The notes below the pieces were generated by a model. The model was given only the letters and a program-made list of their open reading frames with translations. It ran no database searches and was not told the DNA's origin. From assembly GCA_031407385.1 (NCBI GenBank), contig JANOIH010000014.1:1555-65554 (forward strand): a DNA stretch of 64,000 bases. The letters run 5' to 3'. Source of the DNA: Candidatus Altimarinota bacterium. GTDB taxonomy: Bacteria; Patescibacteriota; Gracilibacteria; BD1-5; UBA2023. Of the stretch, positions 12,373 through 64,000 are shown in pieces. The translations under genes and the position numbers were made by a program. How positions within the stretch are numbered: the stretch's first letter is position 1; each line of letters begins with the position of its first letter.

Positions 12373-12498
12373 GTGAGGAGGAGATAGATTATAGGAGATA
12401 GGAGATAGCTATGAAACTAAACCCTATTGCTTTTCGGAGTCTTTTTTCTACAATATTCAGAAATCCATAATCTCCAAACGAAAATAACTCCTCCTCCC

Positions 12499-23431: not shown

Positions 23432-23480
23432 TATTGTGTTCTCGGCTTGCAAAAGGAGAGGGATTCTATAGAATACTCGG

Positions 23481-23641
23481 GCTAAAATTCCTTCATTCTC
23501 AAGAATCTCTCTTTGTATTAAATAAACGCAAGGGCAACTGAACAAGTTGCTCAGCCCTTTTGTTTTTAATACAAATTGGGAAGGAATTTTAGCGAATTAC
23601 GAGTGACGACTTCGGTTGCCCTTTTAGTTTGCTAAAATTCC
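23481..23641 (+). other. 113-nt nested perfect hairpin plus a third competing copy of its 5' arm
   Basis: Stem 1: GCTAAAATTCCTTC (23481-23494) with GAAGGAATTTTAGC (23580-23593). Stem 2: TTTGTATTAAA (23512-23522) with TTTAATACAAA (23565-23575). Stem 3: AAGGGCAAC (23530-23538) with GTTGC-tca-GCCCTT (23546-23559). GCTAAAATTCC is repeated at 23631-23641. Confidence 0.6.
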
Positions 23642-23696
23642 AAAACGCATCTCATGAAGACCTCTTTTAGCATTTACTTTTGTAAGTGCTTTTATT

Positions 23697-44053: not shown

Positions 44054-44075
44054 ACCTAGAGAGGTTTTTTGTTCC

Positions 44076-44238
44076 CGTCACCCCCGAAGGACAAGGAAAT
44101 CCACCGTTTCCGTCATTGCGAGGAACGAAGCAATCCAGCGTTTCTAGTTTTCGTCATTCTGAGGTTTCTGTAGCTCAGAATCTTCCTAACTTGTTTCAGA
44201 GTCCAATCCATGTACTTTTTGTAGAAAAAGTACCAAAA
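44076..44238 (+). repeat. GTCA-hairpin modular repeat array, copy A
   Basis: Units CGTCACCCCCGAAGG...ATCCACCGTTTC (44076-44110), CGTCATTGCGAGGAACGAAGCAATCCAGCGTTTC (44111-44144) and TCGTCATTCTGAGG..CTCAGAATC (44151-44186). Tail hairpin GTACTTTTT-gtag-AAAAAGTACCAAAA (44212-44238). Confidence 0.75.
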
Positions 44239-45590: not shown

Positions 45591-45614
45591 GATGCTTTGA
45601 TTATTTTGTGTACC

Positions 45615-45729
45615 AGTCACCCGCGAGGTACGAAGCAATCCAGTGTTCCTCGTTCCTGTCATTCCTGCGTAGGCAGGAATCCAGCGTTTCCTTTTCCTTC
45701 CGTACTTTTGTAACCAAAAGTACCAAAAG
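45615..45729 (+). repeat. GTCA-hairpin modular repeat array, copy B
   Basis: AGTCACCCGCGAGGTACGAAGCAATCCAGTGTTCC (45615-45649) and TGTCATTCCTGC-gtag-GCAGGAATCCAGCGTTTCC (45657-45691). Tail hairpin GTACTTTTG-taacc-AAAAGTACCAAAAG (45702-45729). Same order and orientation as copy A. Confidence 0.75.
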
Positions 45730-50105: not shown

Positions 50106-50921
50106 TTATACTGTCTGTATCAGAATCTCCCCGAATCGCTTTATTCCAGCATAATCAGCAAAAAATGAATACTCCCACTGGGGGTATTTTTGCACTTCTT
50201 GTTCTGCGATCTCTCGTTGGTCGAAACCGAATTCAAATAGTAGGCTGGTAGACTGGTAGGATGGTAGATTAGCTAGAGCAGATAACTCTTCGAATAGGCG
50301 TTCGTACATCTCGAATCCAGTTCGCTCTCAGCCGAAGAGTGCCAGACGAGGCTCATGAACCGTGTCGGCACTCATATTGATCCAGTCTTCCGCCTTGATA
50401 TAGGGGAGATTGGTGAGGAAGACTACGGAGGAGATAGAAGAGAGGAGATAGGAGATAGGCAGAGCAGAGAGCAGGTCAGAGACGATGAATTGGGCTCTCT
50501 TCTCTCCATAGTGAGCTCGGAAGTTCTGCTCGGCGACAGCGAGCGCCTCTGGAGATATATCGAGGAAGATCACCTCATCCGCAAGATCTGCGACACTCGT
50601 CCCGATTATCCCAGAGCCACAACCGATATCGATGACTATGGACTTGCTCTGTCATTTCGAGTAAAGAAAATCTGTTTCTGTGATTTTCGCAATCGATCCC
50701 GCTCAGCGGGACTGCGCTGTTTTCTGAGCAAGATGTCTCGGCTCCGTTATCACTTCGCTCGACATGACAGCAACTGAGAGGAGCTGACGCGCACGTCTCA
50801 CGAGGCTCTCTGTCTCCAGTCTCGGGATCAGGACATCAGGCGTCACGAGATAATCTCTACCGAAAAAGTTTACCTTTCACTCTATATATTCCACAGGATA
50901 AGTGTCGGGGAGAGAGGACAT
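50106..50921 (-). CDS. prmC: release-factor glutamine N5-methyltransferase (HemK/PrmC) carrying an in-frame repeat insertion
   Basis: VLIPRLETE, VIDIGCGSG and TNLPY (NPPY variant). Frame checked codon by codon across 50581-50820. It lacks the usual N-terminal helical domain. Confidence 0.85.
50649..50770. repeat. GTCA-hairpin repeat element, copy D (MITE-like, 13-bp terminal inverted repeats) inside prmC
   Basis: CTGTCATTTCGAG (50649-50661) versus CTCGACATGACAG (50758-50770), whose reverse complement is CTGTCATGTCGAG. Internal hairpin ATCCCGC-tcag-CGGGAC. Confidence 0.75.
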
Positions 50922-51846: not shown

Positions 51847-53628
51847 ATGCGTTTCCATATATCCCCACAAAAAAATAACAATAGGTATCAGCGTATCGTC
51901 GCCTCACTTGTACTCTCTCTGTTTCTCATGACTCCAATGGTCTGGACAAGTACGGCAATGGCTCGTACTGTAACTCCAACAACTCCTGTTCTCCAGCCTG
52001 GAATCCTCCAAGTCAGAAGTACGGCGGTCAGGACAACAGACAATATCAGCTATAAGCAGAAGGTAGTACTCGCGAGACAGCTCATGCAAGTAGCGAAGGC
52101 CAGTAACAAGCGTCTCTCATTCGTCAGTGCTATGCGTCAAGTGAATAAGACCCTTACAATCACACCAACGAAAATGCTGATCGCCAAGGCACATCTCCCA
52201 GCTAAGAAAACAACTCCAATTCCTGTACTCAACTCAGCTCCTACTGCTCCAGTAGTATATGCTGGTGGTGGAGGCGGTGGATCTACGAGTAGCTCGACCA
52301 CCTCGACTACGACGGTAGCAACTCCAACTCCAGTCACCACAACGGTATCTACGCCAGTCACCACGACGGTATCTACTCCAGTGACGACGACCGTATCATC
52401 TCCAGTCTCGGCTCCAGTAGTAGTCGCTCCTACTGCTCCAACTGCTCCGGCCCCAGTGGATCCAGTTGTAGTCGCTCCAGCTCCGACTGCTCCGGCCCCA
52501 GTAGAACCAGTTGTAGTCGCTCCGACTGCCCCAGCTCCGACTGCTCCAGTAGTAGTCGCTCCGACTGCCCCAGCTCCGACTGCCCCAGCTCCGACTGCTC
52601 CAGCTCCAGTGGCTACTCCGACAGGAACAACTCCGATCAATATCGTGAGTCCACAGGATGCAAATCTCGCGAAACTCTCCGAATACCAGAAGGTGATGTG
52701 AGGATTTGTCGCGGATAACCTGATGATATTCATGAATATGCCACAATCAGCAGCAGGGATAGATGGAGCGTCATACTATATGGCCAACATCATGAATGAA
52801 TATGCCAAATATGGGATCACTCCGATATTCGTATTCGAACCAACGGGTGACAATGGTGCTCAGCTCGATCTCGGCAAGCTCAAAAATGGTGACTACAGTG
52901 CCAATATGGAGCTCCTCTTCTCGAAGATCAAAAATGATCGAAAAGTAACAGAGGATAAGCTCGGACTCATGGTCCCATATCCTGAGATCAATACTCCAGC
53001 GTTCAATCGGGCGAACTTCGTCCCAGAGAATCTCCCTACTATGGTGAATATATTTTTCGATAGTATCAAAAAATCATATCCAAATGTGAAGGGTGGACTC
53101 CTCCTCGATGCGAAGTCATACGATGTAGATAAGAGTTGGGGGCAGGGTGTCGCTCGGAGTTTTGCTCCATATATCACGGGGATCAAGCCCGGATATATCC
53201 AGACATTCGGTCTTCAGGGATTCCCTTGGGCGAGCAATGATGCAAGCGTCAAGGTCTACGATCCAACAGTGTTCCTCCCGACGGGTATCACCGCAGAAGC
53301 GGCGAATATCCTCGGAACCAAGAATATCTGGTTCAATACCGGAACGATGAAGAGACAGTATCCAACGAACACAGTTAATGTGACTCCAGCAGAGCGAACG
53401 ACTACGTACAATGGTATCATCAACCAGGCGACAGCACTCCAATCACAAGGATATACGATGATGGTCCATATCTTTGCCCAGGACAAGTTCTCGATGGGAG
53501 AAGGGATCGATTGGTCTTACATAGAGAATGCCAATGATGGAGTATTGTCGGCCCATGAGGGCGTATTTGCTACATTCCTCAAACAGGCTCAGTCAAAAGG
53601 ACTCAAGGTCGGACTCTTCGATAGATAA
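51847..53628 (+). CDS. secreted protein with Pro/Thr/Ala/Val-rich linker and C-terminal putative glycoside-hydrolase-like domain
   Basis: ORFs 51847-52701 and 52723-53628 are in one frame, joined by TGA at 52699-52701. Signal/transmembrane segment at the N-terminus. The function of the C-terminal domain is a guess. Confidence 0.65.
52327..52610 (+). repeat. coding tandem repeats (TVSTPVTT about 3 times, then VVAPTAPAP-type units)
   Basis: Periodic CCAGTCACCAC.ACGGTATCTAC units with a 24-nt period, then GTAGTCGCTCCGACTGC... units of about 45 nt. Confidence 0.8.
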
Positions 53629-53682: not shown

Positions 53683-56600
53683 TTATGGAGAATAGAATGC
53701 TGCGACAATATCGCTCGCCGCCTTGCCACGTGTGACACCGTCAGATACTACGGCTACCATATCACCGGTAGCAGTCTTCTTGATCACGGCGATCAGCTTG
53801 TCGATCTCACCCTGCGAGATGGTATCATTGGGACGGAATCGGGCGTTTGACTTATTGATCCAGCCCATAGCGACACCGTAGTTGATATAGTTGATGAGAC
53901 TATGTTTTTTTGGTACATCACTGAATTTTTTCCCTACGGTTGTGACAGGAGTCGTGTATCCATGGGCGATCGAGAGTAACTTGATGAATTCACCACGAGA
54001 GATGAGTCGATCGGGAGAGACCTTGATCCCATTGTTCATCACTCAGGCTCGTACGAGGGTCTCGATCGCGGATCGCCATGGACTCGAGGCGAGATCACGA
54101 GCCAGGATAGTGATACCTGAGCTGATAGGAGCTCCGACTATACTGGTGGTACTAGGTACTGTAGTCGTAGTAGATGCAACAGAAGACGAGATAGATCATC
54201 CTCCATCTCCACCTCCACCTCATCATCATGTCCCTCCACTGGTGATACCTGTTCCTGTAGTCCCAGTGCTAGTAGTCCCAGTGCTAGTTGTACCGGTTCC
54301 AGTCGTCCCAGTTCAAGTCGTACCAGTTCCAGTAGTCCCAGTACCCGTCGTACCTGTTCCAGTTGTACCGGTTCCCGTCGTACCGGTTCCACTGCCGCCT
54401 CACCCAGGTATCACTATCGGAGTACCGACGATCCTGATATCATCGATCCAGACGAAGTCGTTGCTATCACTGAGATTCTCTCGGATACGCAGAGCAAATC
54501 ATGGGGCATCCGCGGCATCTGCAGGGAGCATGATAGAGTGAGAGGTCAGAGTCTCGGGTGTAGTTGATATCGGAGTTGGTATTGCTCAGATGCCGTTGCT
54601 GGTCGCGATCTCCGTATCGTCTGCCGCATAGAACATATGGACAGCGAGCGAGCTATCTATAGTCTTGATCGGTGTCCAGGTCGTACCATCGGTCGTATAC
54701 TCCAGTACCACTGAGTCTCACGCCTCCAGCGTGTCCCACTTGTAGCAGAACGAGAGACGGATATCGTTGTACCCGAGAGTTGAGACAGATCTCCTGAGAG
54801 TCTGATTGCCCGTTGGATCAGTTCCGACGATCTTCACGGCACGTAGATTGGTATCTGGTCCGAGACGACAGGTGCCATCACTCATGATAAAATTGGAACC
54901 CCTACTACTATCCCAAGCATCGAAAGTCTGATCCTCAAATCAACCAAAGAACAGAGTCTGAAGAGTAGGATTGCCTACCGGAGCGGAGATCGTGATGATG
55001 ATCGACGCTTGGGCCCCTTGTCCGAGAGAGTCCTCGACAGAATACGGGATCGTGACTCTACCGTTAAATCCTCCCACAGGAACAAATGTCACAATACCAC
55101 TCGATGGACTCACCGTCACTGTTCCTTCTGGTAGCACCAGAGTCGTCTGTGATTCGCTGATGAGTATATTGAGATCGAGAGTCGAGCTATAGAGTGAGTT
55201 GCCAGAGCCAAATGCCTGATCATTCGCGAGGATATCTGGTATCGTGAGAGTAGTATTGGTCACTCAGGTGACGATATCATCACGAGCAATCGGAGGAGCA
55301 AGGAGAGAAGTACCCCCCATCCATACATAGTTATCGGTAGTGATCCAACCAGTGCCTGATATACTATGATATACTGAGGCTGTTCTGGCTCAGGCTGGAG
55401 TCGTGAATGTCCGAGTGAAAGTCTGCCACACAGGAGACGCTGCAAGAGTACCAAGAGTATAGAATGAGTGTGTCCCATTGGCAAGGCCAATATCGACAAT
55501 CACATTTGATACAATATTGGATTGGTAACTATCTGAGAATATATATGGCGTATTCTCTGCTACGGATACAGGGTCAAATGCCCACTTTGCATCTCCGCTT
55601 ATATACCGAGTGATCTCTACTTTTGCAGCCCTTTGGCTAGTATCTCCGAGTACCGGGTATGTCCATACCTGCTCATTGTTCCCGAACCATCATCGGATCC
55701 AGTTATCTGGTGTATCTGGGAGTACTGTATTTGCTTCCATTCCTGGATTCCTGATGAGGTTCCCCGTCGTTACTGGAGAGTTGTTGAGATACATATTCAC
55801 CGAAGATGTGGACGCAAATCCACTCGGATCCGTGACCGTGAGGATGATCTCTACATAGATATCAGTCGCACTATGATCAGGAGCCACAAAAGTTGTCTCA
55901 GGGCCTGTCGCACTCTGGAGAATGTGCGTATGTATATTGTGATGGAGGAGGACTTGCCAGGCAAATCCAGAACCCGAGATAACTCCCGTCTCTGGATCTA
56001 CTCCCGTTCCTGAGAGCCGGATGATATCTCAGGTGTGATAGGTGGATCAATTGGTCGGTGATAGTATCGTCACTGAGGGTCTCTGATTGCCTGCGAATAT
56101 CCTCGTACTCCGCACATCGACTCCACCACTTCCATCTCGGACCGAGAGGATCGCATCGTAGGTACCATCTGCGATATAGGTATGAGTGACTAGGGTACCT
56201 GTAGCACTATTCCCATCACCAAAATCCCAACTATATGAGAGTGTATCTCCATCTGGATCACTCGATCCTGACGCAGAGAATGTGACTGTGATCGGCAGAG
56301 GTCACCCAGATATATCAGTGCTGAGAACCGCCAGTGGCTTCCTATTTCATAGGGTATATATCACTCGTTTGACCTCACCCGTATAGATCGCTATATAGTA
56401 GAGACTCCCGTCGGGGGCCGTCTTGATATCTACTGGTCACCCTGGATCTGTGATGAGGGATTCTTGAGAGATGATAGTATTGTTCGCACCGAGTGTGACG
56501 AGTGTCATCATGTTCAGAGCATAGTCACCATAGACGTATGATCCGATATATGCACTCGGGAATGCAGATCCGACGAAGTCACCCCCCACCACACTCCCCG

Positions 56601-63296: not shown

Positions 63297-64000
63297 ATGA
63301 ACATCCTCTCTTCTCCATCACACACTACACTCCAGTCTCTCTGGTGGGATGAGTTCACTCGAGCACTTACGACCCTCGCAACTCAAGATGAGATATATAT
63401 CGGACTCTCAGGTGGATCATCACTCGATATCTTCTATGCGCATCTTCGCACTCATCTCTACTCTATCGATACACAGACGCGTAGTCGCTTGCGGTTCTGC
63501 CTCCTCGATGAGCGTATCGTGAGCGAGGATCATCCTGACTCGAATCTGTGACAGCTTCGCAAAAAATTCCTGACAGCGCTCGTGGAAGAGATGATTATCA
63601 GTGAAGATCAGATCATCTCTGTGTTTCCGTCATCGCGAAGTATGATCAGGTCCAGCGCTTCTGAAAATACTGAGCATGGATTGCTTCGTTCCTCGCAATG
63701 ACAGGAACAAGAGGAGTCATCTCTAGCAAAGTCCTACTCTCTCCTCATCCCTAGGGTCGACATCGCACTCGTCTGAGTCGGACCAGATGGACATATCGCA
63801 TCCCTCTTCCCACATCATCCACTCCTGGACTCTACTCATGTATGATATCTGGAGATCACTGATTCACCGAAGCTACCATCACATCGTATCACCGTCTCAC
63901 CTGCCATGCTCAGATCTGCACCGTACGTCTTCGTCGCGTTCATGCGAGGCAAAGAAGTTGCATATAAACAGTTCCAGGATAACACTCTATCTGTGGCGGA
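63297..64000 (+). CDS. pgl: 6-phosphogluconolactonase (3' end off window) carrying an in-frame repeat insertion
   Basis: GLSGGSS... and V-G-VGPDGHIASLFP. It starts 3 nt after the zwf stop. Frame is open to the window end with TGA as sense. Confidence 0.85.
63629..63702. repeat. GTCA-hairpin repeat element, copy C, inside pgl
   Basis: GTCATCGCGAAG (63629-63640) ... GGATTGCTTCGTTCCTCGCAATGAC (to 63702). The latter is the exact reverse complement of the GTCATTGCGAGGAACGAAGCAATCC unit at 44112-44136. Confidence 0.75.

Follow-up and report, generated by a model that had tools for sequence, protein, structure and literature searches.

A probable palindromic repeat element inserted in frame in prmC

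The prmC/hemK gene in a 64,000-nucleotide stretch of contig JANOIH010000014.1 from a Candidatus Altimarinota bacterium of the Gracilibacteria (the whole stretch is hereafter called the window) contains a segment that most of its orthologues lack. We estimate at roughly three chances in four that this segment is a non-autonomous palindromic repeat element, composed of two inverted, TGTC-tagged units resembling repetitive extragenic palindromes (REPs), which surround a spacer and lie in frame ahead of strand β1 of the encoded protein. The case rests on the match of the termini to a widespread repeat unit and on the comparison of orthologues. An initial annotation had described the segment as a 122-bp in-frame insert similar to a MITE (miniature inverted-repeat transposable element). 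The orthologues bear out the insertion and correct its size: the net addition is 120 nt, or 40 codons, rather than the 41–43 residues first counted. Because 122 is not a multiple of three, 1–2 nt of one terminal tag must count as host sequence.

The insert is placed between the helix ending in LVRRARQLL and strand β1 (IVIDIGCGSG). When the product was aligned with Thermotoga maritima HemK using HMMER, residues 7–48 and 95–214 corresponded to HemK residues 76–117 and 124–237, and the intervening 46 residues (49–94) stood opposite only 6 residues of HemK. The initial annotation had expected 6–10 residues at this position in orthologues and about 41 extra residues here, the latter figure being slightly too high: the stretch from PRLETE to DIGCGSG has a modal length of 19 amino acids among the 120 best homologues and measures 59 here.

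The ends of the insert are 13-nt inverted termini, CTGTCAT[T/G]TCGAG, present as first reported and differing by one mismatch (Table 1). They pair further outward with a 2-nt bulge, TTGCT(CT)GTCAT. Of the two terminal units, one is complete: its arms, ATGTCGAG and CGAGACAT, form five Watson-Crick pairs, a tandem G·A mismatch and one G:C pair, both arms are unchanged in the only homologous copy (locus L002), and the unit fits, as a regular expression, the unit pattern derived from other phyla. The second unit is degenerate. Its altered 3′ arm is also found in L002, and its tag supplies the in-frame triplets AAA TGA CAG on the gene strand. The internal hairpin of the initial annotation is likewise present within the spacer, though L002 lacks it and has a 9-nt shorter segment instead. 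No TAA or TAG occurs in the reading frame of the insert, which has no open reading frame (ORF) of its own. The 271-codon translation under genetic code 25 confirms the earlier statement that the frame is kept and that both TGA codons of the insert (+ strand positions 50703–50705 and 50652–50654) specify glycine. The whole element is predicted to fold with its termini paired (z = −2.8 as DNA and −2.5 as RNA, relative to shuffled sequences).

The terminal unit recurs in many phyla

REPs with a CGTC tag have been defined by a terminal CGTC (often TGTC or CCTC), a stem of 8–9 bp starting with A and T, a loop of 4–5 nt and a CCA tail (PMC3733652). They occur mostly as inverted dimers, usually 3′ of genes (Di Nocera, De Gregorio & Rocco 2013, BMC Genomics 14:522; PMC3733652). 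We scanned 185,579 species-representative genomes with the pattern TGTCAT[G/T]TCGAG, 75–105 nt, CTCGA[A/C]ATGACA, and at least 120 stretches matched (loci L006–L125). The matches listed include Flavobacterium, Chloroflexi, Verrucomicrobia, Omnitrophota, Patescibacteria, Gammaproteobacteria and Clostridia; among them, the terminal motif bounds inverted dimers of 100–130 nt at more than 120 loci in many phyla. These listed matches come from Flavobacterium and other phyla and are therefore uninformative on copy number in Gracilibacteria. The unit in the 123 elements extracted from them consists of TGTC, an arm AT[G/T]TCGAG, a loop (mostly 3 nt, up to 29), an arm CGAGA[A/C]AT and a final C. It is complete at both ends of 76 elements and at one end of 34, so that 110 of the 123 listed elements carry it. 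A literature search with literal element strings (GTCATTTCGAG and similar) matched primers only.

A separate observation concerns the Flavobacterium members of the listed set. Elements of about 100 nt with inverted termini of at least 24 nt, TGTCATTTCGAGGAACGAGAAATC, recur in many of these genomes, and variants of TGTCATTTCGAGGAACGAGAAATC are found among the listed matches from Chloroflexi, Verrucomicrobia, Omnitrophota, Patescibacteria and Clostridia.

One loop of PrmC accommodates several unrelated inserts

The initial annotation had proposed an alignment of PrmC orthologues as a check, and in this alignment the insert is absent from most of them. The loop is short in P0002 (on a 1.1-Mb contig), P0003, P0006 and most others. 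In P0001, encoded at L002 and assembled from a different sequencing run, the homologous segment is the same element, 9 nt shorter and without the central GC hairpin, and not a repeat-free loop. At the same codon, P0004 (L005) and P0017 (L207) contain another element instead, a CGTC dimer of textbook form that has outward-facing tags, 8-bp stems, 4–5-nt loops and CCA tails. The shared starting codon is seen when TCA GTT CCT ATC ATT is set against TCA GTT GCT GTC ATG, and these inserts end in the same frame with GAA TGA CAG. At least three more kinds of repeat-derived insert occupy the loop in other orthologues (...FGTFQSWKV..., ...FGTFGYKSTE..., ...PPLRGSQRGY...), and the PRLETE–DIGCGSG stretch reaches 31–104 residues in 15 further homologues with other repeat-derived inserts. 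The length of PrmC accordingly varies from 214 to 310 amino acids among full-length close homologues. Among relatives, this loop is a hot spot occupied by several repeat inserts that are unrelated to one another.

In a neighbor-joining tree of 205 conserved columns, the PrmC of the window groups with the insert-free P0002 and with P0004, which contains the other element, and not with P0001. It is 83% identical to P0002 over the conserved columns and 74% identical to P0001, with which it shares the insert.

A second in-frame case lies in the gene of 6-phosphogluconolactonase, pgl, which extends from 63297 to the end of the window and includes an inverted CGTC dimer (Table 1). This insert was delimited by orthologue alignment; an alignment of Pgl with PDB entries did not delimit it. 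The corresponding loop is short in 15 more distant orthologues (P0135–P0149). In 13 of the 14 closest (P0121–P0133) it contains varied repeat-derived inserts, most of which end in a TGA codon, and P0134 has a shorter repeat-derived segment. The second case indicates that the phenomenon is genome-wide in the subclade and not a peculiarity of prmC.

Other variable sites were observed in PrmC. A second loop, located just before NLPY, is similarly variable: it encodes LPISYLLSSISS in the window, and other orthologues hold repeat-derived inserts of 20–30 amino acids there (PLQREYREAGRDL.., LLEKGGVTNEMSDGG..). Within this second loop, a 32-nt purine-rich simple sequence, GGAGGAGATAGA..GGAGATAGGAGATAG (50427–50458), is 91% identical to intergenic positions 12377–12408. 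The gene of P0002, the closest orthologue and free of the insert, has a 16-nt tandem duplication, ATCCAATCACACTACC x2, at the hot-spot loop (L003, 10150–10185), encoding HPITLPSNHTT. Microsatellite-like peptides of the PTNxPT and FQHSN types recur at three loops in many PrmC orthologues.

The inserts diverge as DNA

We compared the two shared insert types with their flanks in the host gene. The inserts of the window and L002 are 81% identical in nucleotide sequence, evenly over codon positions 1, 2 and 3 (0.80, 0.80 and 0.82), and their amino-acid identity (0.68) is lower than their nucleotide identity (0.81). The flanks of the same pair are 68–70% identical, with values of 0.67–0.73, 0.84–0.89 and 0.48–0.54 at the three positions, a pattern that reflects purifying selection with nearly saturated silent sites. 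Among codons specifying identical residues, 3 of 27 differ in the insert versus 66 of 159 in the flanks; third positions differ at 7 of 40 and 105 of 222 sites, respectively (Fisher p = 4e-4). The inserts of L005 and L207 behave in the same way, being 88% identical (0.89, 0.85 and 0.89) next to flank third positions of 0.50–0.51 (p = 1.3e-4). Base pairing is retained in both pairs. One stem has undergone a compensatory double change between L005 and L207 (CTGGG/CCCAG versus CCGGG/CCCGG), and GT-GATA-AC in the window corresponds to GC-GATA-GC in L002. Divergence that is equal at the three codon positions and far below that of host silent sites indicates that the inserts evolve as DNA and not as protein. 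Two readings fit this pattern: the inserts may postdate the split of the host genes, having arrived independently or been converted from other copies, or their sequence may be under constraint at the nucleic-acid level. Turnover is favored because varied elements occupy one site and because of the gene tree.

Evidence against a mobile element and alternative explanations

Several results weigh against our proposal. Comparison of filled and empty alleles revealed no target-site duplication and no flanking direct repeat. No transposase was identified, although no search aimed at Y1 transposases was made across the loci, and no dedicated transposase is known for CGTC REPs in general (PMC3733652). 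In a blastn-short search of the window and about 830 kb from the loci of relatives, the element matched just the orthologous copy in L002. The 43-residue insert peptide was unmatched among 5.8 billion proteins in a search that needs three shared 5-mers and missed even P0001. The terminal units alone are not predicted to be stable hairpins (z of 0.2 and 0.07 versus shuffles), and they depart from the published definition in their loops of 17 and 3 nt and in their tails, CTT and CTG instead of CCA. Finally, when close relatives were scanned generically for a tag followed by a hairpin, 11 matches were obtained as compared to 1–10 in shuffles; a scan that performs no better than shuffles is uninformative on the abundance of the repeat family in the genome.

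The ends of the inserts bear on how such elements might enter. Every PrmC-loop insert, and nearly every Pgl-loop insert, ends in frame with xAA TGA CAR. Uninterrupted alleles already have a TGA at the spot where inserts end (CAG TGA CAA TCA AAA in L206 and AAA TGA AAC in L208), which may be a host glycine codon that forms part of the target, or a footprint. These elements might be targeted to the site, and not just tolerated there, by a single-strand mechanism like that of the IS200/IS605 insertion sequences (IS), with the TGTC(A) at one end belonging to the host target. The in-frame ends, the TGA of the empty alleles and the excess of the terminus-to-terminus length (122) over the net gain (120) fit this idea, which we nevertheless regard as unlikely. 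If it were true, TGA glycine codons followed by CA would be insertion hot spots in genes of code-25 bacteria, and recurrent, independent and recent arrivals at one codon would be explained.

We also considered a single ancient insertion retained for a function of the nucleic acid itself, such as an mRNA or DNA structure acting in expression, stability or replication, with the absence of the element from P0002 and P0003 due to secondary loss. Such a history would account for the conservation of both shared insert types far beyond silent sites and equally at all codon positions, and for the compensatory changes that preserve pairing. Furthermore, the CAG TGA CAA of L206 stands exactly at the insert end and could be a deletion footprint, and the exact subfamily was seen only at the prmC site within the loci searched. 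However, the two known copies differ in their central hairpin, folding of the whole element exceeds that of shuffles by a moderate margin and folding of the units alone does not exceed it, and sister lineages have wholly different elements or none at this site. The similar pattern in the pgl loop is better explained by colonization of permissive sites than by a prmC-specific function. On this evidence, we find the ancient insertion quite improbable.

An ordinary lineage-specific expansion of a protein loop, with inverted ends that arose by chance, is a third explanation. With up to one mismatch and a gap of 60–140 nt, the window contains 15 inverted repeats of 13 nt, as compared to 0–9 (mean 2.8) in 10 mononucleotide shuffles. 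Since comparable repeats arise about three times per shuffled window, the inverted repeat alone is weak evidence for an element; the failure of the nucleotide and peptide searches to find a second whole copy can be read in the same way. Nevertheless, the termini match base for base the unit found, in the same dimer architecture, at the more than 120 loci listed, textbook CGTC dimers occur at the same codon of other orthologues, and the insert lacks codon periodicity and has an amino-acid identity below its nucleotide identity. We consider loop expansion very unlikely.

That prmC is a decaying pseudogene, or that the insert is an assembly artifact, is hardly credible. The product scores below the equivalog cut-off of the NCBIfam model RF_mod_PrmC (E = 1.4e-41; 142.7 versus 199.1) and has the catalytic motif NLPY instead of NPPY. 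On the other hand, the ORF is intact and the product passes hemK_fam (120.3 bits, cut-off 115.5). NLPY and the DIGCGSG motif, which is also present here, are invariant in 35 of 35 prmC orthologues, showing that NLPY is a trait of the clade and that the gene is not a pseudogene, the possibility that the initial annotation had raised against its own interpretation. Identity to orthologues is 84–92% at second codon positions and 48–64% at third positions, values that show purifying selection on the host gene. Between the two copies of the element, the indel of 9 nt preserves the frame. In addition, 4.39 kb including the insert is 100% identical in the Logan assembly of SRR20217198, and another run, SRR34292211, yielded an orthologue with the homologous insert. 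Recovery of the identical sequence in an independent record, and of a homologous insert from a second sample, makes an assembly artifact unlikely.

Removal or bypass of the element by intron-like excision, translational hopping or intein-like splicing is equally hard to credit: the fold can bring both ends together, but in both known copies the element is in frame and stop-free under code 25, such that no removal is needed, the window has no Rfam match to an intron or other RNA family (one tRNA only), and 40 residues without intein motifs cannot be an intein.

As a side observation, the PrmC proteins of this clade (the window protein and P0001–P0120) lack the N-terminal helical domain, measure about 220 amino acids without inserts, and have NLPY and PRLETE as invariant motifs, versus the usual NPPY and PRPETE. 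The closest solved structures to the window protein in a PDB search are T. maritima and E. coli HemK/PrmC, and the neighboring genes sod and folD have the same order in orthologous loci.

Genetic code 25 and the predicted site in the protein

Translation under code 25 is supported by two of the four prmC TGA codons, which align with conserved glycines of T. maritima HemK (YIxG and FGGE). Each of five element copies, four from prmC and one from pgl, uses 1–2 TGA codons in frame. Of the 30 frames of these five copies (six each), 24 are open with code 25 and 7 with code 11. One in-frame TGA is supplied by the tag read backwards (ATGACA). As the repeat tag contains TGA on one strand, reassignment of TGA to glycine opens frames that TGA as a stop would close.

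Class I methyltransferases have the N-terminal side of β1 on the edge opposite the glycine-rich GxGxG loop that binds S-adenosylmethionine (SAM) and the catalytic motif. From this topology, the insert site should lie far from the SAM pocket. For P0001, an AlphaFold2 model computed with W at its TGA positions and 49 aligned sequences reached a mean predicted local distance difference test (pLDDT) score of 85 and a predicted template modeling (pTM) score of 0.83; its best PDB matches were HemK/PrmC structures (TM-score 0.65–0.67). Structure modeling had been suggested in the initial annotation, and the model obtained places the insert in a predicted continuation of the first helix, reaching residue 68, and then in a low-confidence coil (69–88) before β1. 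Block-mean pLDDT is 52–74 over residues 51–90, and most core blocks exceed 90.

Under the interpretation that we prefer, a repeat element colonizing a permissive site, the element would have arrived by transposition or recombination from another copy, mobilized in trans by some enzyme. It would be transcribed and translated as a surface excursion of about 40 residues, comprising a helix extension and a flexible coil. The insert could be tolerated because the site is predicted to face away from the SAM and GGQ pocket, on the other side of the Rossmann fold, and because the TGA codons from the tag (ATGACA) and the spacer would be read in code 25 as glycine and not as stops.

Relation to known repeat elements

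The element is of a known kind, the intragenic in-frame palindromic repeats of the CGTC-REP and Rickettsia palindromic element (RPE) class; the phylum and the genetic code are new. The CGTC-REP class includes Neisseria dRS3 and Rickettsia conorii RPE-4 and RPE-6, and its intragenic dimers encode 20–30 amino acids in frame, clusters of them 43–82 (PMC3733652). The prmC insert shares with these repeats the unpaired TGTC at both outer ends, the inverted dimer and the in-frame insertion, and the units of L005 and L207 and one intergenic unit of the window (45657–45681) match the definition exactly. Apart from the loops and tails described above, it differs in that its arms pair only with tandem G·A mismatches and one arm is degenerate. 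Its host, a code-25 bacterium within the Candidate Phyla Radiation (CPR), belongs to a phylum outside the five listed in PMC3733652.

The likeness to Rickettsia elements that had been pointed out for this insert turns out to be closer than was claimed, given that RPE-4 and RPE-6 are themselves CGTC-tagged REPs whose dimers insert in frame (PMC3733652). Like RPE-1 and its relatives, the prmC insert is palindromic, within the 100–150 bp size range, in frame in a housekeeping gene and absent from orthologues; for RPE-1 the likeness is one of behavior. RPEs add surface-exposed peptide segments. The same type of behavior is apparent in prmC, where a constrained host gene has the insert in frame at a predicted surface site away from the active site. 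Unlike in the Rickettsia systems, the frame here depends on TGA being glycine, and several unrelated elements share one loop in related lineages.

Two other systems offer partial parallels. The REP doublets known as REPINs, with their REP-associated tyrosine transposases (RAYT, or TnpA-REP), resemble the prmC insert in having two inverted REP units around a spacer, the potential for one long hairpin and no target-site duplication. The tag here is TGTC rather than GTAG, and no RAYT gene was seen, including between the arrays of the window; the rest of the genome was not searched. The initial label, MITE-like, holds for the 122-bp size, the 13-nt inverted termini, the absence of a transposase gene or other coding capacity and the ability to extend an ORF. 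It fails for the target-site duplication and for copy number, which is not demonstrated, and no cognate IS was identified, although no search aimed at one was made; a REP dimer, or REPIN-like element, is at least as apt a description. Coxiella QMITEs are reportedly bacterial MITEs that insert in frame. The fitting label is a TGTC-tagged, REP-like dimer that has MITE-like termini and is close to the superfamily of CGTC/TGTC-tagged REPs.

The initial annotation knew of no equivalent in code-25 CPR bacteria, and our literature search agrees: we found no REP, MITE or RPE-like elements described in Gracilibacteria or Absconditabacteria, the one Gracilibacteria repeat report being on a tandem PTD repeat. 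Our interpretation would add the CPR to the lineages, Rickettsia and a few others, in which palindromic repeats are known to have colonized housekeeping proteins in frame, and the open frames of the element copies would be a concrete side effect of TGA-to-glycine reassignment. Inserts of this kind inflate and diversify conserved proteins in Gracilibacteria metagenome-assembled genomes. They disrupt gene calling under the wrong code, and alignments and phylogenies can be misled by them. A loop used repeatedly by elements that are younger than the silent-site divergence of their hosts would also provide a tractable system for studying how CGTC-type REPs move.

Other repeats in the window

Units with a CGTC or TGTC tag occur at four other loci of the window. 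Both intergenic arrays (Table 1) lie directly 3′ of genes, encoding an RRM protein and UppS, which is the typical position of REPs. The canonical unit at 45657–45681 reads TGTC, ATTCCTGC, gtag, GCAGGAAT, CCAG. A REPtron between the arrays at 44.1 kb and 45.6 kb was ruled out, as the genes there are those of the RRM protein and UppS, and none is a transposase.

Table 1. Positions of the prmC element, its parts and related features in the window
Feature	Position	Strand	Description
prmC/hemK gene	50106–50921	minus	271 codons + stop, genetic code 25, four in-frame TGA = Gly
Palindromic element in prmC	50649–50770		122 bp terminus to terminus; net extra DNA 120 nt (40 codons)
Left inverted terminus	50649–50661		CTGTCATTTCGAG
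Right inverted terminus	50758–50770		CTCGACATGACAG; reverse complement of CTGTCATTTCGAG, one mismatch
Complete terminal unit	50732–50769	minus	TGTC tag, arm ATGTCGAG, 17-nt loop, arm CGAGACAT, then C
Degenerate terminal unit, opposite orientation	50650–50672	plus	TGTC, ATTTCGAG, TAA, AGAAAAT, C
Central GC hairpin in spacer	50698–50710		CCCGC-tca-GCGGG; contains in-frame TGA; window copy only
Predicted tryptic peptides of insert			QLLSVAVMSSEVITEPR, ITETDFLYSK
Inverted CGTC dimer in pgl (6-phosphogluconolactonase)	63623–63711	plus	In frame, encodes VFPSSRSMIRSSASENTEHGLLRSSQGQ, ends CAA TGA CAG
Array of three tandem CGTC-tagged units	44074–44182	plus	Intergenic, between convergent genes; last unit with 8-bp stem
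Two CGTC/TGTC-tagged units	45611–45691	plus	Just 3′ of uppS

Immediately after the CGTC arrays, at 44205–44235 and 45697–45727, stands a second hairpin motif, GTACTTTT-GTA-..AAAAGTAC CAAAA. In translated form (..FGTFQS.., ..FGTFGYKSTE..) this motif is found inside the PrmC loop inserts of other orthologues, for example L126, which suggests composite elements built from CGTC units and the second hairpin motif.

The window contains further repeats. The intergenic region after the ribosomal-protein cluster (23470–23650) has nested inverted repeats, GGCTAAAATTCCTTCA / GGAAGGAATTTTAGC / GCTAAAATTCC and AAGGGCAAC..GTTGCCCTT, with no Rfam match. Two large ORFs contain tandem repeats (52400–52620 and 54216–54404, with periods of 15 nt and 9–45 nt) encoding low-complexity stretches rich in Pro, Thr, Ala and Val, and their products are probably surface proteins.

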